NCBI GenBank assembly: GCA_964464785.1
Contig: CAYXLS010000001.1
Location: forward strand, 1-47,697
Origin: an uncultured Gammaproteobacteria bacterium
Lineage (GTDB): Bacteria; Patescibacteriota; Microgenomatia; UBA12405
DNA length: 47,697 nucleotides
Direction: 5' to 3'
Shown: positions 5,935-33,652 of the stretch, in pieces
Layout: the number at the start of each line of letters is the position of its first letter
How positions within the stretch are numbered: position 1 is the stretch's first letter
The notes under the pieces: model-generated
Databases searched by the model: none
Seen by the model: only the letters and a program-made list of their open reading frames with translations
What the model was told of the DNA's origin: nothing
Position numbers and translations under genes: made by a program

Positions 5935-5939
5935 ATAGA

Positions 5940-8090: not shown

Positions 8091-8746
8091 TTTATAATTT
8101 TAACAGCAAAAAGCCCAAAAGAATATTTTGGAGAATAATAATTTAAAATTTGAAATAAAGCATTGATCGCATAAAAAAAAGGACGTGGATAAAATTTAAT
8201 ATTTTGATAAAATTTTCCATTTATAAGGCTATCGACATTGTTTGATGGTTTATAAAAAATTTTTAAACCACTAACACCATAAACTTTAAAACCATTTTTT
8301 TTAAGTTCAGTAATTGACCATCCAGATAAATGTTTTTGATATTTATTGTTGTCAACTAAATCCATAGGAAAATAATTATTAGGAGTAGATAGAATAACTT
8401 TTTTGCTTGCCCATTTTTGAGCTAATTTTAATATTTTTAAACCATTTTTTTTAGAAAGATGTTCAAGGACTTCAATTAGAATTACGGCATCAAAACTTTT
8501 GGGTTTAAAATTTAAATTTAAAATATTTTTTTGAAGATATTTAGTATGAATGTTTTGTTTTTGAGAAATATCTAAATATGGTTTAAAAAGTTCAACCCCA
8601 ACGCTGTATTCAATATTTTTAATATTTTTCAATGGAGATGAAGGGCCACAACCAAGATCAAGTACAGTTTTACAATTAACTAATTCTTTTTGGAGACAAT
8701 AATCAATTTTATGAACGATTTTATAGATGATTTTTTTTATACTCAT
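8087..8746 (-). CDS. Class I SAM-dependent methyltransferase
   Basis: 219 aa. Motif I VLDLGCGPSS and motif II-like AVILIEVLEHL. 4-nt ATGA overlaps with both neighbours. Confidence 0.75.
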   Translation of the reverse strand: MSIKKIIYKIVHKIDYCLQKELVNCKTVLDLGCGPSSPLKNIKNIEYSVGVELFKPYLDISQKQNIHTKYLQKNILNLNFKPKSFDAVILIEVLEHLSKKNGLKILKLAQKWASKKVILSTPNNYFPMDLVDNNKYQKHLSGWSITELKKNGFKVYGVSGLKIFYKPSNNVDSLINGKFYQNIKFYPRPFFYAINALFQILNYYSPKYSFGLFAVKIIK

Positions 8747-17626: not shown

Positions 17627-18424
17627 GCCTGTATTAACTCTCATTTCTAATTCAGGATCATAGACCCATTTTCTTTTATTTTTATCATCGTAGTAATGAA
17701 GTATCCTAAGTCGGTAAAATACAGCAAGGGCATCAATTAAACATTGCCAGACGACTTTAAATCCAGTGGCGTGAGTTAGACTAGAAAAGTCATAAGTTAG
17801 TTTTATGGGTGATTCATAAATGTTTCTAAAGCCTAGATGGTTTGCCACGGATAACATTTCTAGGTCAAAAGCATAATTTTTTATAAGAAGACGAGGTAGG
17901 ACTTTGGTTAATACTTGTCTTTTAAAAATTTTAAGACCAGCTTGGGTGTCATAGATATTAATGCCTAATAAAAATCTAGCAATTAAATGCCCGCCAAAAC
18001 TAATTATCTTTCTATCTAGGGGGTAGTTTACTTTTGAGGCGGGATGTCGTTTTGAGCCAACAATAATATCGGCGTTATACCACTCCATGTGCTCTAGAAT
18101 CATCGAAATACCATTTGGTTCTATTTCCATCCCAGAATCGATAAAAGCAATATAATCCCCTTTTGTTTTGGCCATACCGTAACGGATGGCATAGCCTTTG
18201 CCGTGATTATTTTGATAACCAAAAACTTTTAGATTTTTTAATTTTAATTTTTTAATTAACTTATATGATTTATCGACATTGATACCATCGACAACGGCAA
18301 TGATTTCAAAGTCATATCGAACTTGTTCAAGTGAATGATAAATATTAGTAATGTCGTTTAAAATAGTTTTTTCTTGTTTGTAGACCGGGATAATAACAGA
18401 TAAGAAATGGGTGTTATTTTTCAT
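17621..18424 (-). CDS. Polyprenyl-phosphate glycosyltransferase (DPM1 / ALG5 / GtrB-CsbB-like GT2)
   Basis: 267 aa. LSVIIPVYKQEKT, NHGKGYAIRYGMAKTKGDYIAFIDSGMEIEP, DTQAGLKIFKR and FDLEML. These match the signature blocks of dolichyl/undecaprenyl-phosphate sugar synthases. Confidence 0.6.
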   Translation of the reverse strand: MKNNTHFLSVIIPVYKQEKTILNDITNIYHSLEQVRYDFEIIAVVDGINVDKSYKLIKKLKLKNLKVFGYQNNHGKGYAIRYGMAKTKGDYIAFIDSGMEIEPNGISMILEHMEWYNADIIVGSKRHPASKVNYPLDRKIISFGGHLIARFLLGINIYDTQAGLKIFKRQVLTKVLPRLLIKNYAFDLEMLSVANHLGFRNIYESPIKLTYDFSSLTHATGFKVVWQCLIDALAVFYRLRILHYYDDKNKRKWVYDPELEMRVNTGL

Positions 18425-19505
18425 TTGACAGAATTTTACTATAGACTGAAAGGGTTTGTCTGGCAGTGAATTTCCAATTAAAATTTTTCGATCTTTTTAT
18501 TCCCAAAGAGCGTTGGTTATCTTTTAATTTAGAATCGTTCCAATATTTTTTTAAGATTTCGGATATATGACTAACTGATCGGGGATTAAAACTTAAACCT
18601 ACATTTTCCATAATTTCGGGTAAACATGTGTCTTGACTGAAGGCTATGGGAGTACCTGATTGCATAGCTTGAACAAGAGGTAAACCAAAGCCTTCAGCAA
18701 AAGATGGCTGGCAATAGACGGTTGATAAATTATAAATTAAAGGAAGATCATTATCAGGAACAAAACCAGTTAGTATTAAAGCATTAGAATGTTTATACTT
18801 TTGAGCTTTGGCTTGAAGCCAACGTAAATCTTTTGTCCAAGGATGAATAGGAATGTCTTTTTTGACTGCTGTAGAACCAACAATCACTAAAGGATATTTA
18901 TTTTTTAAACAGGCTTTTACTAGGTTTGGAATGTTTTTGTTCCAATTTATATCACCAACATATAAAATAAATTTATTAGGTAATTTATATTTATTTTTGA
19001 TTTCTTCTAATTTTTTTGGATCGATATTTATTTTGAAACTATTGTCGGCAGCTAAATAGGTTACAGTTATTTTTGACAGAGGGAATTTTGTCAGTTGATG
19101 GATAATGTTTTTTGAATAATTGGAAACAGTAATAATTTGGGAAACTTTTTTTAATTTATTTTTTTGAATAAACCATTTTATTTCACCTTTTATACCCACT
19201 GGAAAATGAGATTTAAATTGACGAGGAATTAGATCATGAACAGTAATTACTGTAGGGGTGTTTTTGTTTGATAGGAGAGTAAGTTTGAAGGGATCGAAAT
19301 AAGGATAATGAATTAAGTTATAATTTCTAATATCTAAAGTAGAATTTTTGATTAAATCAATAGACAAGTCCTTGTAATTAGGATTGATATTGATTTCTTG
19401 ATGTAAAGCATCAACTAAATTTTTAGTATAGTAACCAATTCCCCTAACTGAATTAGCATCTTCTGTTGGAGAAATATCAATGGCTATTTTAATTTTTTTG
19501 GTCAT
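18414..19505 (-). CDS. GT-B fold glycosyltransferase, family 4 type
   Basis: 363 aa. C-terminal QPSFAEGFGLPLVQAMQSGTP. The usual EX7E reads EX7Q here. Confidence 0.7.
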   Translation of the reverse strand: MTKKIKIAIDISPTEDANSVRGIGYYTKNLVDALHQEININPNYKDLSIDLIKNSTLDIRNYNLIHYPYFDPFKLTLLSNKNTPTVITVHDLIPRQFKSHFPVGIKGEIKWFIQKNKLKKVSQIITVSNYSKNIIHQLTKFPLSKITVTYLAADNSFKINIDPKKLEEIKNKYKLPNKFILYVGDINWNKNIPNLVKACLKNKYPLVIVGSTAVKKDIPIHPWTKDLRWLQAKAQKYKHSNALILTGFVPDNDLPLIYNLSTVYCQPSFAEGFGLPLVQAMQSGTPIAFSQDTCLPEIMENVGLSFNPRSVSHISEILKKYWNDSKLKDNQRSLGIKRSKNFNWKFTARQTLSVYSKILSNEK

Positions 19506-20326
19506 TTTTTGTCCCAGTCTTGGGATAAATTTATATCTCGTTTAGTTTTAGATAATTCATAATATTTAGTATAAGCAATGGGATATCTAAGGGCTGAGAA
19601 AAAAGAGAAAACAAAACCAGAAAAACCATCAACATAGCCACGATGACGAAAAAATGTTTTGAAAAACCACCAACATGGCTTAAAAACATAATAATTTACT
19701 CCGCTTAAAAAATTAATTTTTACATTTTTTTCCTTTAATTCTTGAGACAATAAGGTTGTATAGCGATTAGCTCGAAGTAAATATAAAGAAAAAGAGGTAT
19801 CGGCATAATGCTCAAAATCATTTTTGAGATAACCTATTTTCCCATCAACTTTGGCTTGTTCGTGAACATCTTTACAAGGCAAATATCCTTTGTCTTTTTT
19901 GTATAAACGAATAGTGTAGTCTGGATATTGTCCACCTTTGGTAAGGAAACTACCTAAAAAATAATTTTTTCTGGGAATCCAATAACCGTTTTCTAAAATT
20001 GAACTGGGATCTTTTTCTAAAATTGAAACAATTTCTTTTTTAAGATTGGCAGTGACTATTTCGTCAGCATCAAGTTGGAGAATCCAATCAGATTTACATG
20101 CATCAATCCCCATTTGTTTATTGATATGGAACATGGGTTTGTTGGTAGTCGAGATAACTTTAGCTTGTTTAAATTTTTCAACTAATTTGGCTGTGTTATC
20201 TTGTGATTGACCATCGACAACGATAATCTCATTGGCGATATCTTTTATCGCCTCAAGACAACGAACAATATTTTTCGACTCATTGTAGGTTGCCAAAGTA
20301 ACCGAAAGTGTTGATTTATTTTTCAT
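19502..20326 (-). CDS. Family 2 glycosyltransferase (COG0463, WaaE/KdtX-like small GT2)
   Basis: 274 aa. LSVTLATYNESKNI, VVDGQSQDNT and LQLDADE. C-terminal block WIPRKNYFLGSFLTKGGQYPDYTIRLY is shared with the GT2s at 38752 and 40455. Confidence 0.75.
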   Translation of the reverse strand: MKNKSTLSVTLATYNESKNIVRCLEAIKDIANEIIVVDGQSQDNTAKLVEKFKQAKVISTTNKPMFHINKQMGIDACKSDWILQLDADEIVTANLKKEIVSILEKDPSSILENGYWIPRKNYFLGSFLTKGGQYPDYTIRLYKKDKGYLPCKDVHEQAKVDGKIGYLKNDFEHYADTSFSLYLLRANRYTTLLSQELKEKNVKINFLSGVNYYVFKPCWWFFKTFFRHRGYVDGFSGFVFSFFSALRYPIAYTKYYELSKTKRDINLSQDWDKK

Positions 20327-21935
20327 AAATTTTAAAGGCTGCTGTTTGATTTGAAAAATTAATAATATTTATGGGATTTGAAGGAATTTTTTCATCAGAA
20401 GCTACTATTAATGAATTGCTGGGAATGTTGTCCCAATCAATTTTACCAAAATGATAATTATCATAGCTATTAACAGTAGAAAAACCAAATTTGTCTGGTT
20501 GGGTTAATTTGATTTGTGATTGAATAAGTTTTGGATTGTAATGAGAATAGAATAAAAAAAGGATGTAAGGTTGGTCGTATTTATTGGTAATATAAATATT
20601 GTCATAGTCAAATTTTTTTGATTCCACATATGGTACTAATTGGTCAAATTGATATTGCCAAGCAAATGGATAACGTTTGGCATAATGAAAGAAATAACTA
20701 TCGAGATAATAAGCAACAAAGTAAAAGTATAAAACTAAAAATAAAATGGATACAAGATTTATGATTCTAGATTTATGAATAAGACTAAATAACCAATAAA
20801 TTCCACAGGAAATTAAAATTGAAAGAGGAATAACCATTGATAGAGATCGAAGAGCAGATGGGGCTTGGAAAGTTAGAGATGAAGCAATTGGTGATATTAA
20901 TAGAAATAATATAATAAAGATTTTAAATTTACGATTAATGATTAAAGATTTAAGAATAAAAATAAGACCTAAAATTAAAAGTGGTATTTCGATTAGGTGA
21001 ATTTGTCCCATTTCAGGTACTTTTGAACGAGGAACCTCATCTCCATTGATAGACAGAAAATTTAAATCAAAATGAGATGAATAATTATCGGCCCAGGAAA
21101 TAAGATAAAGAATTCTTTTATTATGCATTATGCGGTTTATTAGCTTGATATTGTTGTGATGATTTATAAGTTCATTAGCACGATTGATTGGACCCATATC
21201 AGCGGACAAACCCACTCCTCCAAGACGAGTAGTACCACCGTTATTTAAAAATGAAAATAATACTGGGAGTAAAAGTAAAATTCCAAGAATAATTGGAATA
21301 ATTAGTTGGGGTAATTTTTTAATTAAAAATTTAGAATATAAAATAAAAAGACTTAAAGCTAGCAACGGAGCTATCAGACGAGCTGAATGATATATATAGA
21401 GAGAAAGTATGAAGTTTAGTATGAAAAGGGAAAAATTAAATAAAAATTTTTGTTTGATTGATTTAAAGAAAAAATAAGAACCGATGACAATAAAAGATAG
21501 TGCAGCCGATGATTCCCAAGCACCACGACTAAAATGAATATGCCATGGTGATAATGATAGTACTATAGAGCTATAGAGTCCTAGTGTATTGGATTTTGTC
21601 AAAAGAAATATCAATTTATATAAAAAAATAATTGTTAATATTGATAGAATGAGATTAGGTAAGCGAACGGAAAGAGGATTTAATCCTAAAAATTTTATAA
21701 AAGGAAGGGCTAAATAGACATAACCACCAGGTTTATAATCCCCAAAAGATTTAAAATGGAGAGGCCAAGAAACACCATGTTCATCTTTGCCAGTAAGTAA
21801 TAAAGAATATGCATTGTATCCGAGAGAAGCTTCGTCTGGGTTTAAGGCAGGGGTGTTGCTTAAATCGATAAATCGAATTAGAAAAGCAAAAAAAATTATT
21901 ATTGGTAGAAATATTTTATGGATTTTCATAAGCAT
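20316..21935 (-). CDS. GT-C fold membrane glycosyltransferase, ArnT/PMT (GT39/GT83, COG1807) type, paralog 7
   Basis: 539 aa. NPDEASLGYNAYSLLLTGKDEHG, FKSFGDYKPGGYVY, SVRLPN and SPWHIHFSRGAWE. Many TM helices and a C-terminal soluble roughly 130 aa. Confidence 0.75.
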   Translation of the reverse strand: MLMKIHKIFLPIIIFFAFLIRFIDLSNTPALNPDEASLGYNAYSLLLTGKDEHGVSWPLHFKSFGDYKPGGYVYLALPFIKFLGLNPLSVRLPNLILSILTIIFLYKLIFLLTKSNTLGLYSSIVLSLSPWHIHFSRGAWESSAALSFIVIGSYFFFKSIKQKFLFNFSLFILNFILSLYIYHSARLIAPLLALSLFILYSKFLIKKLPQLIIPIILGILLLLPVLFSFLNNGGTTRLGGVGLSADMGPINRANELINHHNNIKLINRIMHNKRILYLISWADNYSSHFDLNFLSINGDEVPRSKVPEMGQIHLIEIPLLILGLIFILKSLIINRKFKIFIILFLLISPIASSLTFQAPSALRSLSMVIPLSILISCGIYWLFSLIHKSRIINLVSILFLVLYFYFVAYYLDSYFFHYAKRYPFAWQYQFDQLVPYVESKKFDYDNIYITNKYDQPYILFLFYSHYNPKLIQSQIKLTQPDKFGFSTVNSYDNYHFGKIDWDNIPSNSLIVASDEKIPSNPINIINFSNQTAAFKIYEK

Positions 21936-23568
21936 AGAATGTAGAAATATTACTTATTGGGCTAAGAAGAAAAAATTGATTAAATTCTGGTTTTTTGTCA
22001 ATAGCTTGACGATAAATTTCTTCTTGAGAAAAAATACCAAGAGAACCTGGATTATTTTTAATATATTCAAAACTTGGTGTAGAAAATTTTATTTTATCGA
22101 TTGACTCGACATTCCCAATATCAATTGAGTTATTTGTAAGTTTTGCTTGTTTTTGATAAATACTTGGAGAATATTTCGAATAAAATAAGTAATAAATGTA
22201 TGGTTGACCATAGAAATTTGTGAAAGTAATATTTTCAAATTTATTTTGGTTTTCTATTAAATATTTTATTGAAGACTTATATCCATATAAAAGATCATAG
22301 GGATTTTTTTTGGTAGTATGATTTAAGTATAAATCGGAATAATAAATAAAAGAAAATATATAAAGCAAAAAAAAGACAATATATAAAATTAAATTTTTAA
22401 ATTTAGTAAAAAATAAATATATACCCAAAGAAATAAAATATATCAAGGGAATTGAAAAAGACATCGATCTAACCGCGTGGACTGAATCACGAGTAAGTGC
22501 AGAAGGGATAGGGGCAACTAATAACCATAATAAAAAGAAAATATTTAATTTATCAATTTTTGGTTGACTAAGTGATCTAAATAAGCCAATTATAAAAAAA
22601 ATAAGACTAGGATATAAAATTACTCCTATGTAAGGAGCTGAATGCCGTGGGTTTTGCCAATCACCATCAAAAATTAAAAAACGAGGTGAAAAATGGTTAA
22701 AATAACGGGTTAAAAAATTTCTAACAAAAAATATGAATCGATTGTGAAAAATATTATAATCTAACTTATTTGTTTCACTTATTATTGTTTGAGTTTCTTG
22801 ACTGGAACGAGGATAGGAAAATAAGCTAACAACTTTAAGTCGATTTGAATTATTTTGGAATAATAGTCCATAAATAATTGGAATGGTAAATAGCCCAAGT
22901 GGAATTATAAAATTGAAAAATATTTGGGTATAGTTAATTTTTTTAAAATTAACAAAGAATAAAATAATTATTAAAAATAAACTAATCATTTTACCTGCTT
23001 GATAGGTATATAAAGACAAACCAAAAATTAAAGAAGAATAAAATATGTATTTACTTTTATGAAAATTTATATATTTAAAAAATAATAAAGCGGCGGCGAC
23101 TAATTCAAAAGTCAAAATATTAGCCTCCCAGGCTCCTCGACTAAAATGGATATTATAAGGATTGATAGCCATAATAAGGCTAGAAATTATTGCAGTTTTA
23201 TGGGCTTTGGGATTAATTTCTTTGATAAGAAAATAAAGAATTATAGGTAAAAGTGAACCTAAGATTATGGATGGAAAACGAACTGAAAATTCTGAAAGTC
23301 CAAAAAGATAGACAAATGGTATGGTTAAATATACATAAAATCCGGGTTTATAATCACCGAATGATTTAAAGATTATGGGGAAAAAAGTTCCATATTCATC
23401 TTTGCTTGTTTTTAAAATAGAATAAGCATTGTAGCCAAGAGCCGCCTCGTCCCAAAGTAATGGTATAGTTTGAATGTAAAGGGATCTAATTAAAAAACTT
23501 AAGATGAAAATAGAAAACAAAATTATTAATATTTTATTCTTTAACATTTTTAGGTATGGTTTCAACAA
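21916..23568 (-). CDS. GT-C fold membrane glycosyltransferase, ArnT/PMT type, paralog 6
   Basis: 550 aa. LWDEAALGYNAYSILKTSKDEYG, FKSFGDYKPGFYVY, SVRFPS and NPYNIHFSRGAWE. Confidence 0.75.
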   Translation of the reverse strand: MLKPYLKMLKNKILIILFSIFILSFLIRSLYIQTIPLLWDEAALGYNAYSILKTSKDEYGTFFPIIFKSFGDYKPGFYVYLTIPFVYLFGLSEFSVRFPSIILGSLLPIILYFLIKEINPKAHKTAIISSLIMAINPYNIHFSRGAWEANILTFELVAAALLFFKYINFHKSKYIFYSSLIFGLSLYTYQAGKMISLFLIIILFFVNFKKINYTQIFFNFIIPLGLFTIPIIYGLLFQNNSNRLKVVSLFSYPRSSQETQTIISETNKLDYNIFHNRFIFFVRNFLTRYFNHFSPRFLIFDGDWQNPRHSAPYIGVILYPSLIFFIIGLFRSLSQPKIDKLNIFFLLWLLVAPIPSALTRDSVHAVRSMSFSIPLIYFISLGIYLFFTKFKNLILYIVFFLLYIFSFIYYSDLYLNHTTKKNPYDLLYGYKSSIKYLIENQNKFENITFTNFYGQPYIYYLFYSKYSPSIYQKQAKLTNNSIDIGNVESIDKIKFSTPSFEYIKNNPGSLGIFSQEEIYRQAIDKKPEFNQFFLLSPISNISTFYAYENP

Positions 23569-25150
23569 ATAAGAATCCTGTTTTACCGTTTAAAAAGTCT
23601 ATTTTTTTTATTATTTGATTTTCTGGAATCTTGGTGTCTAAAAAGTCCCAAGGAGCAGCAATTAAAAGTCGATTAGGTTTTTCTGAATCGACCGACCAGG
23701 TAATTCGATGAAATGAAATTTTATCAATATTTCGAGTTTGATAATATGTTTTTGGATCAGATTGACAATAAAATAAAACATAAAGATAAGGTAACCCAGT
23801 ATTAAGGGGACCATAACTTCCAAAAGTTTCTGAAATTATAATTTCGTCATATTTATCTTTATGTTCACAAGCAAATTGGGCAATTTGCTTGTAACCATAT
23901 TGCCAATATTCTGAAAAATGTTTTGGGGATTGATATTTATATATATCAATAAAATAGATGATATTAATAAATAATAAAAGATAATAAACAAAAAATATTA
24001 TTTTTTTAAATTTAGATTTTGTTATAAATTCAAATCCATGTGCAATTATTAAGGCAAGTGCTGGTATCCAAACTAAGGCACGAAGTGGGTGTTGTTCGTT
24101 CATAGCAAAAGAAGCCGGTAGAGGTCCTAAAATTAACCAAATTAAAGTAATTTTAGAAAGATAGTAACTATTCTTTTTGAATAAATAGTAAATACCAATG
24201 AAAAATAATGGCAAATCAATAAAATACAATAGACCAACTCCTGGGTAACCTGGTTGAGTAAATTGCATACCATTCCAAAATATAAATTCAAAGTTAAAAT
24301 AATTTAGATATTTGCTTAGCCAATGTCGAAAAATGATATAGGCATCGTTATCAAATATAAATTCTTGAATATTTTGATAATTTCCATGATGAAGAGCTGA
24401 AATCAGAGTTGTTTCTCGAAAAATTGAAGTGACAGTGGCTCGAGTTTTTATGGCAGGTGTAAAAAATGATAATTTTAGAAATGGAACTGTGAAGATAGCT
24501 AAAACCAATAATGCCCAACATAGTTGTTTTTTGGTTTTATATAGATTTATTTTTGATCCATATAAAATAATCAAAGTTACTACAAAGATAGGGACAAGCA
24601 ATCGTTCGGCGTGATATGACCACACAGATAAACTAAAGGCAACGACTGAACTTATTAGTGTTGCTAATTTATTTTTTTCAACCCAGGAAATAAATAAATA
24701 GGTACCAAGGATTAAAAAAAATAAAGCGGTAACAGCTTCGAAACTCGCCCTGGAGAAATGAATATGCCAAGGTAAAATGCTTAGCCAGAGACCAGTAAGG
24801 TAAGATGCAGTTGGTTTAATTTTTAATTTTAATAGTAGTAAGACAATAAAAATTATAGTAAGTGATCCGATAAGAGCAGATGGTAATCTAGTGGCAAATT
24901 CAGTAAGTCCAAAAATTGCAATAAAAGGAACAGTAAGGTAGACGTTTACTGGTGGTTTATAATCCCCTACTGATTTGAAAGCTAAAGGAAGAAACTCTCC
25001 CCACTCATCACGTCCAGTTTTTAGAATTGAATAAGCATTGTAACCAATAGCAGTTTCATCCATCGATAGGCTTACTGGATATTTAGTTAATTGATAGAAT
25101 CGAAAGACTATTCCGATGATAAAAAGTAGAAGTAATAATTTTTTTTTCAT
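23534..25150 (-). CDS. GT-C fold membrane glycosyltransferase, ArnT/PMT type, paralog 5
   Basis: 538 aa. SMDETAIGYNAYSILKTGRDEWG, FKSVGDYKPPVNVY, ATRLPS and LPWHIHFSRASFE. Confidence 0.75.
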   Translation of the reverse strand: MKKKLLLLLFIIGIVFRFYQLTKYPVSLSMDETAIGYNAYSILKTGRDEWGEFLPLAFKSVGDYKPPVNVYLTVPFIAIFGLTEFATRLPSALIGSLTIIFIVLLLLKLKIKPTASYLTGLWLSILPWHIHFSRASFEAVTALFFLILGTYLFISWVEKNKLATLISSVVAFSLSVWSYHAERLLVPIFVVTLIILYGSKINLYKTKKQLCWALLVLAIFTVPFLKLSFFTPAIKTRATVTSIFRETTLISALHHGNYQNIQEFIFDNDAYIIFRHWLSKYLNYFNFEFIFWNGMQFTQPGYPGVGLLYFIDLPLFFIGIYYLFKKNSYYLSKITLIWLILGPLPASFAMNEQHPLRALVWIPALALIIAHGFEFITKSKFKKIIFFVYYLLLFINIIYFIDIYKYQSPKHFSEYWQYGYKQIAQFACEHKDKYDEIIISETFGSYGPLNTGLPYLYVLFYCQSDPKTYYQTRNIDKISFHRITWSVDSEKPNRLLIAAPWDFLDTKIPENQIIKKIDFLNGKTGFLFVETIPKNVKE

Positions 25151-25764
25151 AGTCTAGTTATTAGAAAAACTCTTAAAAAAAGATAGAGGGAATAAATAGA
25201 AAAAATTAACAAAAATATTTTTTTATTTTTTGGTTTCCAAAAAGATATTTCATAAGCACTGCAGTATAAATAAAATAATGCAGTAGGAAAAAGAAAATAT
25301 AAATTGTATTGGCCAGAAATATATCCAAGTAATACCGATAATAAGCCTATTAATAAGTATTTGAGTTTGTATTTAATTATTAATCTATATAAACCAATTA
25401 TTGTAACTGGTAATAATAAAATTGCGATTGGTTCGATTTTTGGAGGAGAATCTACTTGTCCAGTACCTGATTGGAAATAAAAACGAGGGTTTAGGTTATT
25501 TAAATAAATAATAGACTCGGAAACTAATAATTGAGATTTGTTATAAAAAAATCTACCCCAAAATGGTCGATTATCTTTGGTTACATCGTTCCAGCGAAAT
25601 TCATCAATATATTTTGTGTTTGTAAATATAGAGGTTACCTTTTTATTTATATATGAGGGAATCTTTTTATATTCAAATATTATTTTATTTTGATTTACCA
25701 AAAATTGCCACCAAAAAAATGGAGAAATCAAAAGTAATATTAAATAGATATTTTTAGTTTTCAT
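25147..25764 (-). CDS. Small membrane protein homologous only to the central loop-plus-helix region of the flanking GT-C paralogs (mini-paralog)
   Basis: 205 aa. N-terminal anchor helix, a roughly 90-aa loop, then 3-4 helices. IIYLNNLNPRFYFQSGTGQVDSPPKIEPIAILLLPVTIIGLYRLI aligns with FLTRYFNHFSPRFLIFDGDWQNPRHSAPYIGVILYPSLIFFIIGLFRSL of the 550-aa paralog. It lacks the DE-motif N-terminal third and the C-terminal soluble domain. Confidence 0.6.
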   Translation of the reverse strand: MKTKNIYLILLLISPFFWWQFLVNQNKIIFEYKKIPSYINKKVTSIFTNTKYIDEFRWNDVTKDNRPFWGRFFYNKSQLLVSESIIYLNNLNPRFYFQSGTGQVDSPPKIEPIAILLLPVTIIGLYRLIIKYKLKYLLIGLLSVLLGYISGQYNLYFLFPTALFYLYCSAYEISFWKPKNKKIFLLIFSIYSLYLFLRVFLITRL

Positions 25765-25765
25765 T

Positions 25766-27352
25766 TTAAATTTCTAAAATATCAAAAGCAGGTGTGTTGT
25801 CTAAAAATTTAATAGTATTAATTAAGTGATTCCCTTGATTGTAGTTGTTTGGAGAAGTAATTAAAAGGGTATTGTTTGTTGGATTGATATTTAAAATATA
25901 TTCTTTAATTTCCCAATCATTGACAAATTTAAATTTATCAAAACCATTAATCCAGTACCAATTGGCGTGAAAGTCCCAAATTTTATTAGAATCATTTTGA
26001 TATTTAGATGGATCCCAAGGCCAATAAAATAATAAAAATTCATGTGGTTCGCCGTATTTTTTGGTAACTATAAATTGATCATAATTTTGGTAATTTTTTT
26101 GAATAAAAGCAACCATATCTTGATATCCATATTGCCAGGACGATGAATATTGGGTGGCATATGATTTATAAGATGGCCAAAATAGTATTTGTCCAACTAT
26201 TAATACAAAAAAAACAAAGCAGGTAATAATTTTGGGGATTTTTTTATAAATAAAATTTATTCCAATTGTAATTAATATTACAATAACAGGTAAGATAGAG
26301 ATACTTCTAAGAACATGAGGGGCGTCTCTAGTAATACTTGAGGGTAGCGGTGCTATTAAGAGCCAAAATAGTAATATTTGATTATTTTTTTGCTGAATAT
26401 TTTTGATTAAGTAATATAAGCCAAAAATTGAGAAAGGTATAAAAAATGGTGATATTAAAAAGAAATTTGGAAGACTAAATTGATAATGAGATCCACCATT
26501 TAAAAATATAAAATTAGGAGTGAAATGACTTAAATAGTTTTTGGTGGCTGTATATGTAAAATAAGTAACTTTGTTGATTATTAATCTAGGGTAAGATTGT
26601 CTAAGTTCATTTATTTTGTTTATAGAACCTTGATCGAGTAAAGAAACCCATTGGTATCTTGCTTGACCTGATTGATTTAGTGTTTGGAAAACTGTTAATG
26701 CTGTCAAAAATATAAAAGGAATAAATTTGTAAAAGCTATTAAAAATTTTGACCTTATCTTTGACTAATAAATAAATAAGTAAAACAAAATAAAGAGGGAG
26801 TATAACTCGACTACTATTATAGGTGAATAATGTAACTCCATAAATAAAAGTACTTAAGGGATATTTTTTTTGAATTAGAAAATAAATACTAAGACAAAAT
26901 AATAATAGAAATAAATTTGCTTCAAGAGCTATTCTTGATAAAAATATAGTACCTGGAGAAAAGGAGATAATCGATGCTCCTAATAATGGTAACTTTAAAT
27001 TGTTTAAAAATATTTTTTTTAGTATTAGATAAACCACTAAAGGTATTAATGAACCAGCTAAAATAGAAACTAGGCGAACAGAAAAACTGTTTAGACCTAA
27101 TAATAAGACCGAAGGGACGGATAAATAAATATAAACAGGTAATTTGTAATCACCAAAACATCTAAAAATTGATGGCATAAAATTCCCCCATTCATCTCTC
27201 CCTGTTTTTAAGATGGAATATGCATTGTAGCCATGGGAAACTTCGTCCCAATTTAAACTTGGTGGAATTTTATCTAAATTAACAATCCTTAAAATAAAAG
27301 ATATTATTAAAATAATTATTAATAAATATTTGTCTTTTTTTAAAAAAATCAT
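25766..27352 (-). CDS. GT-C fold membrane glycosyltransferase, ArnT/PMT type, paralog 4
   Basis: 528 aa. NWDEVSHGYNAYSILKTGRDEWG, FRCFGDYKLPVYIY and SVRLVS. The SPW-HIH-SR block has diverged to SPGTIFLSR. Confidence 0.75.
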   Translation of the reverse strand: MIFLKKDKYLLIIILIISFILRIVNLDKIPPSLNWDEVSHGYNAYSILKTGRDEWGNFMPSIFRCFGDYKLPVYIYLSVPSVLLLGLNSFSVRLVSILAGSLIPLVVYLILKKIFLNNLKLPLLGASIISFSPGTIFLSRIALEANLFLLLFCLSIYFLIQKKYPLSTFIYGVTLFTYNSSRVILPLYFVLLIYLLVKDKVKIFNSFYKFIPFIFLTALTVFQTLNQSGQARYQWVSLLDQGSINKINELRQSYPRLIINKVTYFTYTATKNYLSHFTPNFIFLNGGSHYQFSLPNFFLISPFFIPFSIFGLYYLIKNIQQKNNQILLFWLLIAPLPSSITRDAPHVLRSISILPVIVILITIGINFIYKKIPKIITCFVFFVLIVGQILFWPSYKSYATQYSSSWQYGYQDMVAFIQKNYQNYDQFIVTKKYGEPHEFLLFYWPWDPSKYQNDSNKIWDFHANWYWINGFDKFKFVNDWEIKEYILNINPTNNTLLITSPNNYNQGNHLINTIKFLDNTPAFDILEI

Positions 27353-29043
27353 TTGAGAGTTATTAAATAATAAGACAAATTATCTTCAAAAATTGTTTTT
27401 TCAGTATCAATTACCTCTATATCTACGTTTTTATTATTTTTTATTAGTTCATATTCATTTTGGTTTATGACAAACAAACAACTGGAACAATTTTCTTTTA
27501 GAGAATTTATATTACTCCAATCAATTTGGCCAAAATAATATTTATCGTTGGCTTGTAATCCTGAAAAAAATGTTGAAGTTTCAGATATTAATGATTTTGT
27601 TGGTGCAGAATAATTTTTGGTAGATTTATATTGAGTGTAGTAAAGGAAAAAAGGAAGCATCGATTCATCTCGACTACTATAATAGATTTTTGAAAAATTA
27701 TTTTTTTGTTGTTGTGAAGACATAATTATCTCTTTTATACCAGTATGCCAATATCTGGCGGAAATTAGAGGATAGCGATAATTATAACTAAACCAAAAAT
27801 ATGAAAAATTAAAAATAAAAAAAAGAATTAAGAATAAAAATAAATACTTTGATAATTTAAAAATTTTTTCATATCCATAAGATAAAAAATAAATTAAACT
27901 TGGTAGCATTAAAATCAACCTGGTTGCGTGGGCAGAATTTGAGTCACGAGTTAAAGAATAAGGTATGGGTGCAAATAAAAGTAAAAGAATAAAAAAAGAT
28001 GAGAATTTAGAGTTTATTTTAAGTGAATAAATAATACCTAATAAAATAATAAATATATCAAAATAGAAAAAATATCCTTGTGTACCAAAACCTTGTCTTA
28101 GATTAGAATCACCTTTAAATACTAAAAAATCCATTGAAAATGAAGAAAAATAATTTTTTAAGAAAGTTCTAGATACTAAAGTTAATTTGTTATTAAAAAA
28201 TTTTGATAAAAAACTAGGAGAAACACCGATAGACCCATAATTAGTTATTAAAATATCGGAATATCGTTCATAATCAACTCTGGCTGAGAGTGTTGGATCG
28301 GAAAAAATATTTATATATGAAAAACGATTGTTAGATTTGGTAAATAAAGTACTGTGTATTAAGGGTAATAAGGTAACAAAACAAAATATAATTGGTAATA
28401 ATAGATTTTTAATAGGAATTTTGAATAAAGTTTTTTTCCATACTACTAAAATACTTAGAAAAATAAAAAATATAAAAAGTTTTGCCGTGCTATAAAAGTA
28501 TGGTGTTAGAGAAAAACTTATTAAAGACAAAGATAATAATTTATTATTTTTTGTTCTTAAAAATTTACTTAAAAATAATATTCCTAATATAAAAAATAAT
28601 AACATTCCAGTGATAGATTCAAAATTTGTTCGGCTATAATGAATGTGCCAGGGTGACAAACTAATAAATAAAAGTGAAATCAAAGATAATCTATTAGATT
28701 TAGTAATTTGTAAAATCGATAAATAAAAAAATATTAAGGAAAGTATTCCAAAAATTATTGAAGGCAATTTGAGGCTATAAATATTAATTCCTATTAGTTT
28801 TTGAAATAAAGATACCGGTAAGATTGAAAATGGGGTATGCCAGTCAGAATATGATTGAAAAAATATAGGAAATTTATTACCAAAATAATCAGTAAAAGTT
28901 CTATTGAAAGTTATTGCTTGATAGCCAATATCTACTTCGTCGGAAAATATTGATGGAGGTATTTTTGATAGGTTAGATAATCTTAAAAATATTGCTAGTA
29001 GAATAATTGATATAACAGTAATTATATGTATCTTGTTTTTCAT
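27349..29043 (-). CDS. GT-C fold membrane glycosyltransferase, ArnT/PMT type, paralog 3
   Basis: 564 aa. FSDEVDIGYQAITFNRTFTDYFG, FQSYSDWHTP, SLKLPS and SPWHIHYSRTNFE. Confidence 0.7.
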   Translation of the reverse strand: MKNKIHIITVISIILLAIFLRLSNLSKIPPSIFSDEVDIGYQAITFNRTFTDYFGNKFPIFFQSYSDWHTPFSILPVSLFQKLIGINIYSLKLPSIIFGILSLIFFYLSILQITKSNRLSLISLLFISLSPWHIHYSRTNFESITGMLLFFILGILFLSKFLRTKNNKLLSLSLISFSLTPYFYSTAKLFIFFIFLSILVVWKKTLFKIPIKNLLLPIIFCFVTLLPLIHSTLFTKSNNRFSYINIFSDPTLSARVDYERYSDILITNYGSIGVSPSFLSKFFNNKLTLVSRTFLKNYFSSFSMDFLVFKGDSNLRQGFGTQGYFFYFDIFIILLGIIYSLKINSKFSSFFILLLLFAPIPYSLTRDSNSAHATRLILMLPSLIYFLSYGYEKIFKLSKYLFLFLILFFIFNFSYFWFSYNYRYPLISARYWHTGIKEIIMSSQQQKNNFSKIYYSSRDESMLPFFLYYTQYKSTKNYSAPTKSLISETSTFFSGLQANDKYYFGQIDWSNINSLKENCSSCLFVINQNEYELIKNNKNVDIEVIDTEKTIFEDNLSYYLITLK

Positions 29044-29044
29044 T

Positions 29045-30694
29045 TTATTTGGTATGTAGTAGGTAAATAGCTGGTTCTGGTTTCGATTTATTAGGATAAT
29101 AAATAATATAGTCTGGTTTTATGTCTCTAAATTCATCAGGACGACCAATAATTAGTGTATTAGACAATTGACTGTCACTAGGGATATTAATTTCTCTAAA
29201 AATAAATTTATCTAATGAATATTCTCCGAGTTGGTCTAAAAAAGAAAGATTTTTTGATTCATATTCTAGCCAATTTACAGTATTCGATTGAGTAATTTTT
29301 GGATTTATTTTTTGAAAAAATGTGACATACGATTGAGGTTCAGAAAGTTTTCGGGAATAAATTATTTGATTAGATGATGTTTTTTTAATAATTTCATTGG
29401 CTTCACGATGGCCAAAAAGCATACCAGAGGCAAGTATCTGATTACCTTGATAAAAATATCTAATTAAAAAAGATAAATTAAAAAATAAAAATATTAATCC
29501 TAAAATTGTTAATAAATATGGTTTTAGATTAATCGATACATTATTTAAAAAAGTTACTAAACCATACGCAGAAATTATTTGTAAAAAAGGCATCATTAAA
29601 GAAACTCTATTACCAGAATACTGACCTTTAGCAATTGAGGCAATAAATGGTGGAATTAGAATGATGGAAAATAAAAAAAATAGATTATTAATATTTTTGG
29701 AATCTTTCTTTTGAAAAATATAAATAATGCTTAATAATAGACCTAAAGTTGGGATAATACCTAAGACTCCAAAACCAGGAATCATGCCATAAGTGGTTTC
29801 CCCAGCTCCTTGTGTTATTAAAAATTGAGGAGAAAAATAAGATAAATAACTTTGAGAAAAAATTTCATAGATATAAACAATTTTGTTATAAACAAGTCGA
29901 GTTATAATTTTTGGTAAACCATTTTGAGAAATTTCATATTGAGCGTTTGAGACTTGTTGCCAGTTATCAGTTGGGTTGAAAATGGCAATATCTTTTGTTC
30001 GATTTATTTTAATTTGATTATTTTGATAAAAATTTAATAATAAAAATAAACTAAAAAATATAGTTGGAAGTATAAAAACCTTTTTTGGTTGGTATTTTTT
30101 TTGAAAAAATATTAATAAGATTAATAATATAGGAGTGAATATTTTGGCACTATGATATGTAAAAAGGCTTAATCCAAAAAAAAGTGAAGAAAACACATAA
30201 AGTGTGATTGATTTGTTCTCGTTGGCTTTTAGATATAAGTATGTTGCTAATGCAATAATAAACACTACTAAATTAGCTTCTAGAGCAATTCTTGACATTG
30301 GAAGAGCCCATGGAGATATAGCCATAAAAAGTGTGCTTAAAAGAGAAATTGAATAATCTTTAAACAATTTTTGAGAAATGAGAAAAGTAAAAAGAAGTGT
30401 AAAAATAGATAATAATGCATTGGGGAAACGAACAGCAAATGGGGTTAGGCTAAAAATTTTTATTGAAGGAATTAAAAGTAGGGTTTGTAGTGGTGGTTTG
30501 TAGTCGCCAAATGAACGTAAATTTAACCAATTAGTGCTACCCCACTCATCGGCTCCAGTTGAGAGAATGGAATAAGCACTATATCCTTGGGCTAATTCAT
30601 CAGGTGTATATGAGTTTGGAATTGATCCAAGTTTGTATAACCTAAGGAAAGCCCCAAGAATAATGATTAAAATTAAAATTACTTTTGTTTTCAT
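29045..30694 (-). CDS. GT-C fold membrane glycosyltransferase, ArnT/PMT type, paralog 2
   Basis: 549 aa. TPDELAQGYSAYSILSTGADEWG, LRSFGDYKPPLQT, AVRFPN and SPWALPMSRIALE. Confidence 0.75.
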   Translation of the reverse strand: MKTKVILILIIILGAFLRLYKLGSIPNSYTPDELAQGYSAYSILSTGADEWGSTNWLNLRSFGDYKPPLQTLLLIPSIKIFSLTPFAVRFPNALLSIFTLLFTFLISQKLFKDYSISLLSTLFMAISPWALPMSRIALEANLVVFIIALATYLYLKANENKSITLYVFSSLFFGLSLFTYHSAKIFTPILLILLIFFQKKYQPKKVFILPTIFFSLFLLLNFYQNNQIKINRTKDIAIFNPTDNWQQVSNAQYEISQNGLPKIITRLVYNKIVYIYEIFSQSYLSYFSPQFLITQGAGETTYGMIPGFGVLGIIPTLGLLLSIIYIFQKKDSKNINNLFFLFSIILIPPFIASIAKGQYSGNRVSLMMPFLQIISAYGLVTFLNNVSINLKPYLLTILGLIFLFFNLSFLIRYFYQGNQILASGMLFGHREANEIIKKTSSNQIIYSRKLSEPQSYVTFFQKINPKITQSNTVNWLEYESKNLSFLDQLGEYSLDKFIFREINIPSDSQLSNTLIIGRPDEFRDIKPDYIIYYPNKSKPEPAIYLLHTK

Positions 30695-32364
30695 AATTTT
30701 TGAATTATTTGAGCCAAAATGGTGTTGTTGGGATTGTATACGGTTTTAATTGTTTTAAATCCATCTAAATATTTTTTTGTAAAATCCATGTCTCCTGGGA
30801 TATCAAAACCTTGAAATAATAAAAATATATCCCCGGGTTGAGCAATTTGATTAACTGCGGATAAATGATCATTTTGTTTATAGTCATTTATAAAAAATAT
30901 ATTTTTGTAAAGTTTAAATCCTGATAACCCTGAAATTATATTATTAATATTATTATCATCTAGAAAACCATTGTTGGTAGAATATTTTTGATAAAAAGTA
31001 AAAGGTAATAAAGAATTGTACAAAGCATTGCTAATATAAATGTTTTTGTTTGTTTTTGGAATATTTTGGAATAACTCTTTATAACCATAATTCCAGACTT
31101 CAAAAGAATCTTTAGGATAATGAATAAAATATTCATGTGAGTAGCCAATAATTTGAATAATTAAAAAAAGGCTTAAAATAAATAAAAAAAATTTAACAAA
31201 AATATTTTTTAATAAAAAGCTTTTTTGTAATCCAAGAGCAGTGAAATATGACAATGGAACAATCATAATAAATAGTCTAGTAGCATGGGTACTGCCATCG
31301 ATAGTTAGAGATGATGCTATTGGTGCAATTAAAAACCAAAAAAACATTAATTTATTTAATTTATCCTTAAAATCAAGCTGAAAAATACCATAGAGGAGGA
31401 ATGGTAAATAGGAAAGGAAAATTAGTCCAAAATTTGGAATAGTGTGTCGATAATTTATTTGATCACCATATATAAAAAGAAAAGATAAAGAAAAAGAAGA
31501 AATATAATTTTTTGTAAATTCTCCTCCCCAAGCAGTGGCTTTATTGTGGAAAATAACTTCTATTTTAGGAGAAATAGCTGAAAAAGAGGTCCTTTTTTCA
31601 ATAATTTGGTTAATAATATTTTGATTATTAAAAATACTGATAAGATTGAAACGATTAGCGGCAGTGCCAAAAAATATTTGTAACGATAAAGGTAATATTA
31701 ATAATAAAAATAAAATTAAAGATATCAAAAAATTTTTAAATTTAATTTTAGAAATAAAATTTTTTAAATTAGTAACAATAATAGTAATAATAATTAAAGG
31801 AACAAAAATATTAGCGATGTTGTAGGTATAAAAACTAAGACAAAATATAAATATAGATAAATAGAGATATTTATTTTTACCAAAGTTTAAAAATTTATAG
31901 AAGAAAAATATTCCAGTTAGAATTAGTGATAGAAGTAAAGTAACTTCAAAAGAGGTACGACTATAATGAAAATGCCAAGGAGTAAAAGATAAGGCTATAG
32001 AGCCATAAAAAGCGAGAGTGCTAGATTTTGATAATAGTGATACTAGTTTATAAAAAATATATATACTAAAAACACCAAATAATATTGAGGGAAAACGCAC
32101 CCCAACTTCATTTAATCCAAGTAAAGCTATACTTGGTACAGTAGTATAAATTAATAAAGGAGCGCGTGACTCAGATAAAGATTGAATATAGGTAGGTAAA
32201 AAATTACCTTTATAATCGTGACCATTTTGAAATAAAGAATAGGCTTGATAACCGACATCAATTTCGTCTCCAAACAAACTTAGAGTATCTATTTTATAAA
32301 TTCGTAAAAAAAAAGTGATTAAAAGAAGTATAATTAAAGGCCAGTTTAATTTTTTAAATTTCAC
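30691..32364 (-). CDS. GT-C fold membrane glycosyltransferase, ArnT/PMT type, paralog 1
   Basis: 557 aa. FGDEIDVGYQAYSLFQNGHDYKG, GVRFPS and TPWHFHYSRTSFE. Confidence 0.7.
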   Translation of the reverse strand: MKFKKLNWPLIILLLITFFLRIYKIDTLSLFGDEIDVGYQAYSLFQNGHDYKGNFLPTYIQSLSESRAPLLIYTTVPSIALLGLNEVGVRFPSILFGVFSIYIFYKLVSLLSKSSTLAFYGSIALSFTPWHFHYSRTSFEVTLLLSLILTGIFFFYKFLNFGKNKYLYLSIFIFCLSFYTYNIANIFVPLIIITIIVTNLKNFISKIKFKNFLISLILFLLLILPLSLQIFFGTAANRFNLISIFNNQNIINQIIEKRTSFSAISPKIEVIFHNKATAWGGEFTKNYISSFSLSFLFIYGDQINYRHTIPNFGLIFLSYLPFLLYGIFQLDFKDKLNKLMFFWFLIAPIASSLTIDGSTHATRLFIMIVPLSYFTALGLQKSFLLKNIFVKFFLFILSLFLIIQIIGYSHEYFIHYPKDSFEVWNYGYKELFQNIPKTNKNIYISNALYNSLLPFTFYQKYSTNNGFLDDNNINNIISGLSGFKLYKNIFFINDYKQNDHLSAVNQIAQPGDIFLLFQGFDIPGDMDFTKKYLDGFKTIKTVYNPNNTILAQIIQKL

Positions 32365-33652
32365 TTTTTAAAAATTTAAAATAATATTTAAAACACATTA
32401 CTATAAGTATAAATGATAATAAACGGCAGATGACGGAATTGTTCCAATTTAAAAAGTTTTGTAAAAAGATTATTGAGGGATAATACCATAAATTGTAAAG
32501 ATTTAAAAAGTGAATTGTTGACAATAAAATTAATTGTTTTATTTTAATTTTGGTTTTTGGTAAGAAAAGTAATATGGTAATTAGTGGTAATATAGGGTAA
32601 AGATATCTTTCGTGCATATTAGTTAAAAAAATAAAACAGCCAAAAGCGCTGATAGTTAAAGACATAAATAAATTTATTAAGGTTAATTTGTTTTTAATAA
32701 ATTTAATCCAAACAGGAACTAAAAAAATAACATAAAGTAATCTTCCCCACAATTGATAAGTTAAACCAAAAAATTTGATATATTCAGAGTTTGAAAGATT
32801 GATACTAAATATAAGAGACCATAGATTAAAGGCATTTCCGTTTAACATACTACCCTGTCTATTTAAAACTCTATTGGTATACATATACCAAATCCATTGC
32901 AAAGGATTAAAACCGTCTAATGTGAATGGAATTACTAAAAGATATATGAAAAGTAAAAAAATAAAGGTAGGTAAAATATATTTTTTCCAATCTTTAATTC
33001 TTTTTACAAAAATAAGTCCAAAAATTGGTAAATAAATTATTAATGAAAGTTTAAAAAGAAAAGTTGTTAAAAATAAAATAATTCCTAAGAAGTATTTTTT
33101 TTGAAAAACTAAATATAATCCTAAAATTGCTAATAAATTAATTAAAGAATCAGTCTGTCCCCAAATGGTAGAATTGTAAATTAGAACTGGATTAAATAAA
33201 AAAAGATTGGCAGCAAAAAGAGCTTTTTTTGGGTTTATTTTTAACACTATTTTGTAAATTAAAAAACCAAGACCGATATCGGAAAAAATAAAAGGAAGCT
33301 TAACCATCCATGCATGTATATTTGCTTCAATATAAGGGATAATGAATGAGGGGAAAAAGGAAAATGTTTGATTTAAGGTTTGGATAATATTAAAAACTAA
33401 GTTTTTAATTAGGGCAGAAAAAGCAAATAGTAATATTGTGCCAATCGGTTGATTAGGCCAAGAAACTGACCAAAAAATATTTTCATAGAACTTTTTAGGG
33501 CCTAAGTCTAAAAATCTAATACCCCAATCGATGTGATTAAGAAGATCTGGATGCCAATGAAAAAAAATAAGTAAAAAAAGACGTAATATAAAAGCGATGA
33601 GTAAAATATTAGTTATCTTTGAAAATGTTTTTGCCATTTTTGACCAGACCAA
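32354..33652 (-). CDS. Polytopic membrane protein, probable GT-C glycosyltransferase of the Gpi18/PIG-V / DUF2029-like (COG5542) type
   Basis: 432 aa and almost entirely hydrophobic helices. First-loop motif HPDLLNHIDWGIRFLDLGPKKFY...WPNQPIG resembles the D...W...G...FY...YPP pattern of these mannosyltransferase-like families. The specific family call is tentative. Confidence 0.45.
   Translation of the reverse strand: MVWSKMAKTFSKITNILLIAFILRLFLLIFFHWHPDLLNHIDWGIRFLDLGPKKFYENIFWSVSWPNQPIGTILLFAFSALIKNLVFNIIQTLNQTFSFFPSFIIPYIEANIHAWMVKLPFIFSDIGLGFLIYKIVLKINPKKALFAANLFLFNPVLIYNSTIWGQTDSLINLLAILGLYLVFQKKYFLGIILFLTTFLFKLSLIIYLPIFGLIFVKRIKDWKKYILPTFIFLLFIYLLVIPFTLDGFNPLQWIWYMYTNRVLNRQGSMLNGNAFNLWSLIFSINLSNSEYIKFFGLTYQLWGRLLYVIFLVPVWIKFIKNKLTLINLFMSLTISAFGCFIFLTNMHERYLYPILPLITILLFLPKTKIKIKQLILLSTIHFLNLYNLWYYPSIIFLQNFLNWNNSVICRLLSFILIVMCFKYYFKFLKSEI

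Follow-up and report, generated by a model that had tools for sequence, protein, structure and literature searches.

Introduction

Multi-component transmembrane glycosylation relies on a GT-A lipid-phosphate sugar synthase, a flippase of the GtrA or Wzx type and at least one glycosyltransferase of the GT-C type, and in Lactococcus lactis three GT-A/GT-C pairs (CsdAB, CsdCD and CsdEF) operate with one common flippase (PMC8035078). In protein O-mannosyltransferases (PMTs) and most GT-C enzymes, experiments have established as the catalytic element a DE/DxD motif located immediately ahead of the first external helix, and the donor phosphate is held by a second-loop R/D-x4-6-D motif together with a distal Arg (PMC12331936). 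In Rhizobium leguminosarum, RgtA/RgtB (and RgtC/RgtD) are ArnT-like transferases of galacturonic acid (PMC4402001). Here, we describe a row of seven GT-C genes, denoted c1–c7, on a 47,697-nt contig (CAYXLS010000001.1, assembly GCA_964464785.1). This whole stretch is referred to as the window, all positions are given in its numbering, and its host was taken as Candidatus Shapirobacteria (Microgenomates, candidate phyla radiation (CPR)). A truncated paralog of 205 aa, x205, stands within the row. The kind of system is already known; what is new is its architecture, drawn from an uncharacterised GT-C subfamily. The explanation that we favour, and regard as probable, is that c1–c7 are functionally diverged enzymes for extracytoplasmic glycosylation dependent on polyprenyl-phosphate sugars, each with a distinct acceptor, linkage or donor.

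The Rgt enzymes provide the closest functional precedent for such a division of labour: several ArnT-like GT-C paralogs, whose genes cluster and whose donor lipid is a polyprenyl-phosphate sugar, draw on one donor to attach the same sugar at distinct acceptor positions. Homologs of u432, a GT-C gene near the array, also bear the name "RgtA/B/C/D-like". Conversely, the Rgt acceptor is the lipopolysaccharide core or lipid A of a diderm, the sets comprise 2–4 paralogs without a truncated partner, and no specific sequence kinship to c1–c7 was detected. The Gram-positive multi-component systems (CsbB/GtlA, GtrA/Wzx, YfhO/GtlB/GacL; PMC8035078) resemble the window in the neighbourhood of GT2 and GT-C genes, in the presence of Wzx- and YfhO-type genes and in the outer-face action on lipid-phosphate sugars that would apply here as well; several GT-C enzymes sharing upstream components are also known there. 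They employ one GT-C per modification, usually encoded in scattered pairs, whereas 5–7 paralogs of one GT-C subfamily, in a conserved row with a truncated paralog, characterise the present arrangement. Moreover, a GtrA-type flippase is possible in those systems whereas none was found in the window, the host of which is a reduced-genome CPR bacterium. Tandem paralogs that build wall polysaccharide stepwise at the outer face from lipid-phosphate sugars are likewise found in the mycobacterial and corynebacterial GT-C sets (embCAB, AftA–D, MptA/B, PimE). Emb and Aft are among the fold matches obtained for c1, and an MptA_B-like GT-C lies beside the array. However, Emb proteins have ~1,050–1,100 aa and large carbohydrate-binding domains and belong to other GT-C families, and at most three tandem copies occur, compared to seven here.

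Results and discussion

Composition of the array

The seven open reading frames (ORFs; 528–564 aa) occupy positions 20316–32364, all on the minus strand, exactly within the limits reported in a first-pass annotation of the same sequence. Numbered 3' to 5' along the array, they are c1 (20316–21935, 539 aa, the last gene), c2 (21916–23568, 550 aa from a TTG start), c3 (23534–25150, 538 aa), c4 (25766–27352, 528 aa), c5 (27349–29043, 564 aa), c6 (29045–30694, 549 aa) and c7 (30691–32364, 557 aa with a GTG start, the first gene). For c2, the true start is likely the ATG at 23547, seven codons downstream; the resulting 543 aa equal the length called for its ortholog in L010, one of the related loci compared with the window (L001–L025). 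The annotation had described a back-to-back row without mentioning x205 (25147–25764, minus strand), a conserved ORF between c3 and c4. Its junction sizes hold once x205 is counted as a member, giving overlaps of 20, 35, 4, 4 and 4 nt and two gaps of 1 nt each, while strict contiguity does not, c3 and c4 being non-adjacent. The paralogs together span ~11.4 kb within a glycan cluster that extends over 45 kb or more.

All 21 paralog pairs align over most of their length at 27–38% identity (BLASTP E 1e-22 to 1e-82), the closest paralog of c1 being c2 (37.8%, E 3e-82). Twenty-three alignment columns are invariant, among them D34 and E35 (c1 numbering, used throughout). The N-terminal strings and the blocks SFGDYKP, VRFPS and SPWHIHxSR listed previously were all recovered, as were the altered forms SPGTIFLSR in c4 and SPWALPMSR in c6.

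Promoter and terminator scans of the array gave no signal above shuffled background, and no Shine–Dalgarno-like motifs were found upstream of the genes. We infer transcription as an operon solely from co-orientation and from the overlapping or abutting frames.

Family assignment and fold

The gathering threshold of Pfam PMT_2 (PF13231), 26.1 bits, is passed by five copies, namely c2 (41.1 bits, with an additional PMT match of 37.8 bits), c3 (41.4), c5 (30.0), c6 (39.2) and c7 (42.5). The remaining two fall just short, c1 with 22.4 bits against the PMT (PF02366) cut-off of 22.7 and c4 with 22.8 bits against that of PMT_2. Against the remaining paralogs, both reach E 1e-41 to 1e-82, and c4 reaches E 1e-59 to 1e-64 with c1–c3.

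An AlphaFold2 model was built for one copy, c1, on 126 homologs (predicted local distance difference test (pLDDT) 89.5, predicted template modelling score 0.90). It features a first transmembrane helix (TM1, residues 6–22), an external helix opened by D34–E35 (33–48), a beta-hairpin and about 11 further helices; residues ~233–315 make up a long, helical external loop, and ~440–539 a C-terminal alpha/beta domain of ~100 aa. Foldseek comparison of this model with the PDB returned 20 matches at E ≤ 1e-3, all of them GT-C enzymes (PglB, STT3, AglB, ArnT, ALG9, DPY19 and Pmt4), at template modelling scores (TM-scores) of ~0.5; matches to Emb and Aft were weaker (Emb at E 4e-3 or worse). The model indicates a fold common to GT-C enzymes, with no near relative among solved structures. 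When the PDB was searched by sequence with profiles of the seven copies and of 126 sequences and with c2 and c6, the yield was a weak STT3 match (E 0.006) and otherwise spurious ones; none of the solved chains of ArnT or PMT was matched. In the STT3 alignment, the invariant S-R-x3-E block falls on the second-loop acidic motif of STT3, with E141 on its acidic residue.

As the top Foldseek matches are oligosaccharyltransferases and STT3 is the sole match by sequence, the copies could be read as enzymes that move a preassembled glycan en bloc in the manner of PglB/STT3. However, the WW[DE]xG / WWDxG motif of oligosaccharyltransferases (GT66) is absent from all seven copies, the C-terminal domain measures only ~100 aa, and the TM-scores of ~0.5 reflect the shared GT-C fold rather than family membership. 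This identity is effectively excluded.

The likeness to ArnT (GT83) and PMT (GT39) consists in an ArnT-like size (~540–550 aa), the PMT/PMT_2 module, the D-E pair ahead of the first external helix and, in the second loop, an arginine followed by an acidic residue. They differ in that the curated models of these enzymes are missed widely, including the cut-off for protein O-mannosyltransferase (GT39; NF058602), no solved chain of either is matched by sequence, and a Pfam search at E ≤ 0.01 reported no PMT_4TMC or MIR domain. The ArnT/PMT-like GT-C assignment of the first-pass annotation is borne out by the Pfam PMT_2/PMT matches and by a c1 model whose fold is that of PglB/STT3/AglB, ArnT, DPY19, Pmt4 and Emb; Pfam scores, fold and acidic motif concur in placing the array in the GT-C superfamily. 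Judged by sequence, c1–c7 are an uncharacterised Pfam PMT_2 subfamily, distantly akin to ArnT, PMT and STT3/PglB. The family comprises 6,358 clusters at 50% identity (E ≤ 1e-30), without a characterised member or a sequence-detectable solved structure.

Conservation of catalytic residues

Seven residues are invariant among the copies and conserved well beyond them: D34, E35, D51, R137, E141, R237 and R363 are retained at 95–100% in 150 diverse family representatives and at 87–98% in 55 copies from related loci. The catalytic D-E pair, previously reported for all seven copies, is indeed present in each; D34 is kept in 147 and E35 in all of the 150 representatives, and both in 54 of the 55 related-locus copies. 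Compared to the published GT-C motifs, the seven copies share the first, and the second site is a close analogue, R-x3-E (R137/E141), in every copy. The altered blocks of c4 and c6 deviate at non-invariant positions only, and c4 keeps 23 of the 23 invariant residues. Disrupted catalytic residues, which would have spoken for decaying duplicates, were not found in any of the seven copies, all of which retain every family-invariant residue. As part of the explanation favoured above, the seven copies are probably catalytically competent.

Divergence is unevenly distributed along the proteins. Mean identity among the paralogs amounts to 41% in TM1 and loop 1, 25% in the long loop and 23% in the C-terminal domain.

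Age, selection and distribution

Scans for related loci with c4 as the single query protein recovered 3 loci in genomes and 11 in metagenomes. A neighbour-joining tree (100 bootstraps) was calculated from the window copies and the related-locus copies, including those of an Amesbacteria metagenome-assembled genome. Each of c1, c2, c4, c5, c6 and c7 clusters with copies from other genomes at 84–100% bootstrap and none with another window copy (c2, c5 and c7 at 100%, c4 at 86%, and c6 with its L003 and L007 orthologs at 100%), while c5 is sister to c7 (99%). For c1, more than 100 ortholog clusters were obtained at 64–81% identity; the named ones stem mostly from Candidatus Shapirobacteria and are labelled "glycosyltransferase family 39", "phospholipid carrier-dependent glycosyltransferase" or "ArnT-like". 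The assignment of the window to a Shapirobacteria genome is derived from these names.

Gene order is kept as c7, c6, [c5], c4, [x205, c3], c2, c1, GT2, GT4, GT2, and the adjacency of c2 and c1 with overlapping frames was seen in all loci examined. The final trio, directly 3' of the array on the minus strand (17621–20326; GT2 of 274 aa, GT4 of 363 aa and GT2 of 267 aa according to Pfam), recurs 3' of the array in L006–L010, L024 and L025. In some genomes c3/x205, c5, c6 or c7 are lacking, and wherever a related locus was of sufficient length for counting, it had 3–7 tandem family members. The array is, from these comparisons, a lineage hallmark in Microgenomates, Amesbacteria included, and not a peculiarity of this genome.

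For estimating the ratio of non-synonymous to synonymous substitution rates (dN/dS), L001 was useless owing to its 100% identity with the window, and L010, a 97.7%-identical strain, was used instead. With few substitutions per gene, the values were 0.07 for c1, 0.14 for c2, 0.35 for c3 (11 synonymous and 14 non-synonymous differences), 0.15 for c4, 0.06 for c5 and 0.05 for x205. Because the copies fall into orthogroups of their own, in conserved order and with low dN/dS, the duplications are considered ancient and the copies maintained. Decay of duplicates is thereby effectively excluded, given seven full-length copies with intact residues and dN/dS well below 1. Recent amplification was rejected as well, as the orthogroups are ancient and separate and none joins another window copy. 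The identities, phylogeny and dN/dS tests that the first-pass annotation had proposed agree with its view of an old, maintained expansion: pairwise identities of 27–38%, six copies in orthogroups of their own that are shared across genomes (bootstrap 84–100%), a conserved order, and dN/dS of 0.05–0.35 without a sign of diversifying selection. Its further remark that such an array is unusual is correct against characterised bacteria and fails within Microgenomates, where every related locus that could be judged holds 3–7 copies. According to the annotation, its reading would fall if such arrays proved both ubiquitous and functionally assigned; they are ubiquitous in this lineage, while in the literature on CPR/Patescibacteria and on GT39/GT-C-type glycosyltransferases no description or functional assignment of the array was found.

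The variable copy number and composition among related genomes could also reflect a stock of mutually exchangeable enzymes that serves to vary the surface glycan (e.g., in phage or host evasion), in which gain, loss and recombination outweigh any fixed pathway. In line with this, the 267-aa GT2 just downstream of the array (17621–18424, minus strand) differs from its L010 counterpart (10894–11697) by a synonymous divergence (dS) of 1.7 compared to ~0.03 elsewhere (dN/dS 0.05), although the strains are ~98–99% identical across the array; the jump in dS marks a sharp recombination boundary at this gene, shortly past which the L010 contig stops. Set against this are the orthogroups and gene order held across deep lineages including Amesbacteria, the low dN/dS without diversifying selection, and c1 orthologs that remain 64–81% identical over more than 100 clusters. 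A variation reservoir is therefore regarded as very unlikely.

Two observations concern individual related loci. In L009 (10612–14712), the c3-, c2- and c1-type genes appear in fragments of 283, 352, 133 and 289 aa, for which long-read frameshift error is more likely than pseudogenisation. L003 (CAYSTF010000025.1) and L004 (CAZSQT010000014.1) are recorded as "uncultured Gammaproteobacteria"; these taxonomic labels look wrong because both carry a Microgenomates-type array, with copies 40–75% identical to those of the window.

Proposed mechanism and candidate donor synthase

The favoured explanation, seven diverged GT-C transferases acting outside the cytoplasm, would be a multi-paralog form of the multi-component transmembrane systems and, by analogy with them, translates into the following sequence of events. 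A cytoplasmic GT2 would load a monosaccharide onto polyprenyl phosphate, the best candidate for this polyprenyl-phosphate sugar synthase being the 267-aa GT2 that ends the conserved trio 3' of c1. It matches PpgS over most of the model and PgfS, ArnC and AglJ in their N-terminal catalytic portions, in each case at a sub-threshold score far under the cut-off. The lipid-linked sugar would then be flipped across the membrane, for which the cluster offers a Wzx-type flippase candidate (43068–44528), and each paralog would transfer the sugar at the outer membrane face. In this step the first-loop Asp-Glu may serve as base or metal site, with R-x3-E and two invariant Arg gripping the donor phosphate. 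Jointly, the paralogs would build or decorate a complex surface glycopolymer, possibly surface glycoproteins, with x205 assisting the copy-3-type enzyme specifically, as its non-catalytic partner. The first-pass annotation had suggested much the same, i.e., stepwise extracytoplasmic construction of a glycan or glycosylation of many acceptors, and the data are consistent with this proposal. That each paralog has a different acceptor position, linkage or donor is suggested by the old, ordered orthogroups in combination with a catalytic module that is most alike, and a long loop and C-terminal domain that are least alike, among the copies.

Several results weigh against this explanation. All copies score far under the cut-offs of the curated NCBIfam models, with 29.2 vs. 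567 bits for ArnT (NF009784, matched by c6 only), 19.6 vs. 800 for Pmt and 40 vs. 126 for Agl23; as none of the copies attains the curated score of a named enzyme, homology does not reveal the donor or the acceptor. A screen for orthogroup-specific residues yielded only seven positions (32, 69, 183, 186, 297, 301 and 447), which do not cluster in one loop and do not pinpoint the residues that set specificity, and because such residues are few and unclustered the argument for different acceptors is carried by orthogroup age and regional divergence. For the 267-aa GT2, no transmembrane helix is predicted, and all of its donor-synthase matches are sub-threshold. Finally, no gene of the window could be recognised as encoding a GtrA-type flippase, a priming phosphoglycosyltransferase or an acceptor.

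A more specific version pictures a lineage-specific Microgenomates assembly line, in which 5–7 ancient GT-C orthogroups act in fixed sequence, x205 serves c3 as its own non-catalytic subunit, and sugars tailored by the neighbouring B12-dependent and SPASM radical SAM enzymes enter an unusual surface polymer central to episymbiosis. We consider this version rather unlikely. Genomes of CPR/Patescibacteria measure ~1 Mb, and the retention of seven GT-C paralogs despite this reduction, across Shapirobacteria, Amesbacteria and relatives, would make a complex surface glycan a core trait. For bacteria thought to live attached to hosts, this is an apparent heavy investment in a surface sugar coat. The orthogroups and the x205/c3 pair provide concrete targets for expression, structure determination and glycomics.

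The truncated paralog x205

The N-terminus of x205 forms a membrane anchor, after which come a stretch homologous to the long external loop and about four helices; the whole N-terminal catalytic module, D-E loop included, and the C-terminal domain are missing. Its homology to the paralogs was established by profile–profile comparison, the sole basis for it: hhalign aligned x205 to columns 248–392 of the seven-paralog profile, which comprise the long external loop and the following helices, at 95.7% probability (E 8.6e-9). In that alignment the loop motif N-K ... Y ... P-x-F-x-F ... G is kept, while R363 and P349 are replaced. The AlphaFold2 model reached a pLDDT of 79.7, and Foldseek comparison of it with the PDB gave nothing significant (best match PglB, E 3.3).

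The protein belongs to a family of 39 homolog clusters (196–210 aa, 36–99% identity). In every locus bearing it (L009, L010, L023, L024 and L025), x205 lies directly 5' of a c3-type paralog with an overlap of 4–16 nt. The c3-type orthologs beside it in L023, L024 and L025 are 55–69% identical to c3, and in L023 the pair is isolated, outside any array. Since x205 is conserved, under purifying selection and constantly paired with c3, it is viewed as a selected, non-catalytic derivative co-inherited with one paralog, and we infer from these gene data that it may be a partner or subunit of the copy-3-type enzyme. We know of no precedent for a GT-C pseudo-enzyme partner; if x205 is a subunit, it would represent a new way to regulate or scaffold a GT-C enzyme.

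The strict pairing of x205 and c3, even when isolated, and the adjacency of c2 and c1 with overlapping frames in every locus examined also fit a different picture, in which the copies are obligate hetero-oligomers (as in Pmt1–Pmt2 or EmbA–EmbB) with x205 as small subunit, so that one or few machines rather than seven steps are encoded. Heteromeric GT-C enzymes, Pmt1–Pmt2 (6p25) and EmbA–EmbB (7bvc), are indeed among the structural matches. The copy number of 3–7 and the absence of c3/x205, c5, c6 or c7 from some genomes speak against a fixed seven-part stoichiometry, and all copies have a complete set of catalytic residues. We judge obligate hetero-oligomers improbable, more so than the protein O-glycosylation discussed below.

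A second type of membrane ORF, of 221–225 aa, was observed in L009 (2349–3014), L024 (2483–3160) and L025 (2352–3023; all minus strand, in locus coordinates), where a divergent PMT_2 gene of 530 aa follows it immediately on the 3' side. The ORF aligns, collinearly but weakly, with the central part of the paralog profile to which x205 was aligned (hhalign probability 27%, E 6.5e-4). The two genes may form a second pair of mini-paralog and full-length enzyme.

Surrounding gene cluster

The array is embedded in a single co-directional minus-strand cluster that runs from 2912 to the right end of the window, which is AT-rich (GC 24–31%). According to Pfam, the cluster contains 10 GT2, 3 GT4, 2 methyltransferases, 1 Wzx-type flippase and 1 YfhO protein; it additionally encodes a Gpi18/MptA_B-like GT-C, two more GT-C-like membrane proteins and seven radical SAM enzymes. 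Orthologs of its components reappear in related loci in shuffled order.

This neighbourhood bears on whether the paralogs act on a polymer or on proteins. They could be PMT-like protein O-glycosyltransferases, each devoted to its own class of secreted or surface protein (S-layer, pilins, adhesins), with no glycopolymer involved. Pfam PMT matches span the N-terminal catalytic portion of six copies, with four of these matches above the cut-off; the D-E motif is PMT-like, and recognition of protein acceptors could fall to the variable C-terminal domain and the long loop. The candidate donor GT2 moreover matches, below threshold, PgfS, which is named for a streptococcal glycosyltransferase and belongs to an adhesin-glycosylation system. 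Conversely, the Pmt equivalog score of 19.6 falls far below its cut-off of 800, the 10 GT2, 3 GT4, Wzx, YfhO and MptA_B/Gpi18-like neighbours resemble polysaccharide assembly, and the window encodes no candidate acceptor protein. Protein O-glycosylation is thus a possible but comparatively unlikely function.

Immediately 5' of the array lies u432 (32354–33652, minus strand), a GT-C of another family (Gpi18 / MptA_B-like). A Pfam search with the window copy gave no match; its homologs are labelled "Gpi18-like mannosyltransferase" or "RgtA/B/C/D-like", some with PF26314. A gene of 427–437 aa is found at the head of the array, directly or one gene off, in L006, L007, L009 and L025. Further upstream, on the same strand, follow a YfhO-family GT-C membrane protein of 754 aa (34418–36682; Pfam YfhO, 63.9 bits) and the candidate Wzx-type (MOP) flippase introduced above (minus strand; Pfam Polysacc_synt_3, E 9e-45).

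The GT-C-like membrane proteins u585 and p449, two more members of the cluster, are encoded at 44501–47629 on the minus strand and gave weak or sub-cut-off matches. For u585 (44501–46258, minus strand), these are a PTPS_related match (E 0.027) and a resemblance to YfhO, both weak, and no Pfam family was assigned above threshold; p449 scored 20.6 bits with PMT_2, under the cut-off. Orthologs of u585 (31–36% identity) are ORFs of 505–559 aa that break up PMT_2 arrays in other genomes; u585-type ORFs inside arrays were located in L004 (8497–10014), L005 (8451–10022), L006 (3338–6654), L017 (8368) and L018 (3603).

Downstream of the array, a minus-strand block at 2912–16787 comprises seven radical SAM, three GT2, one GT4 and one methyltransferase gene (Pfam). 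The radical SAM genes (2912–15886), with the GT2, GT4 and methyltransferase genes between them, include four with a B12-binding domain, one of them weakly matched, and three of the SPASM type. Radical SAM genes are also found 3' of the array in L006–L009, L024 and L025. The encoded enzymes may act as sugar tailors, a peptide substrate being the alternative.

Three GT2 genes of the cluster (19502–20326, 38752–39543 and 40455–41390, all minus strand) match the N-terminal part of the model of the SunS-family peptide S-glycosyltransferase. This is the best NCBIfam match for two of them and the second for the third, at 49–53 bits vs. a cut-off of 350. Between the last of these and the flippase candidate, a multi-spanning membrane protein of 569 aa without family assignment is encoded (41407–43116, minus strand), orthologs of which occur in the related clusters L005 and L014; it might be a missing polymerase or ligase. 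The cluster is flanked by a plus-strand gene for a 588-aa protein (1135–2901) with ~7–8 predicted transmembrane helices followed by C-terminal tetratricopeptide repeats (TPR), a layout reminiscent of TMTC-type or O-antigen-ligase-plus-TPR proteins. The L007 cluster is likewise flanked by a TPR protein.

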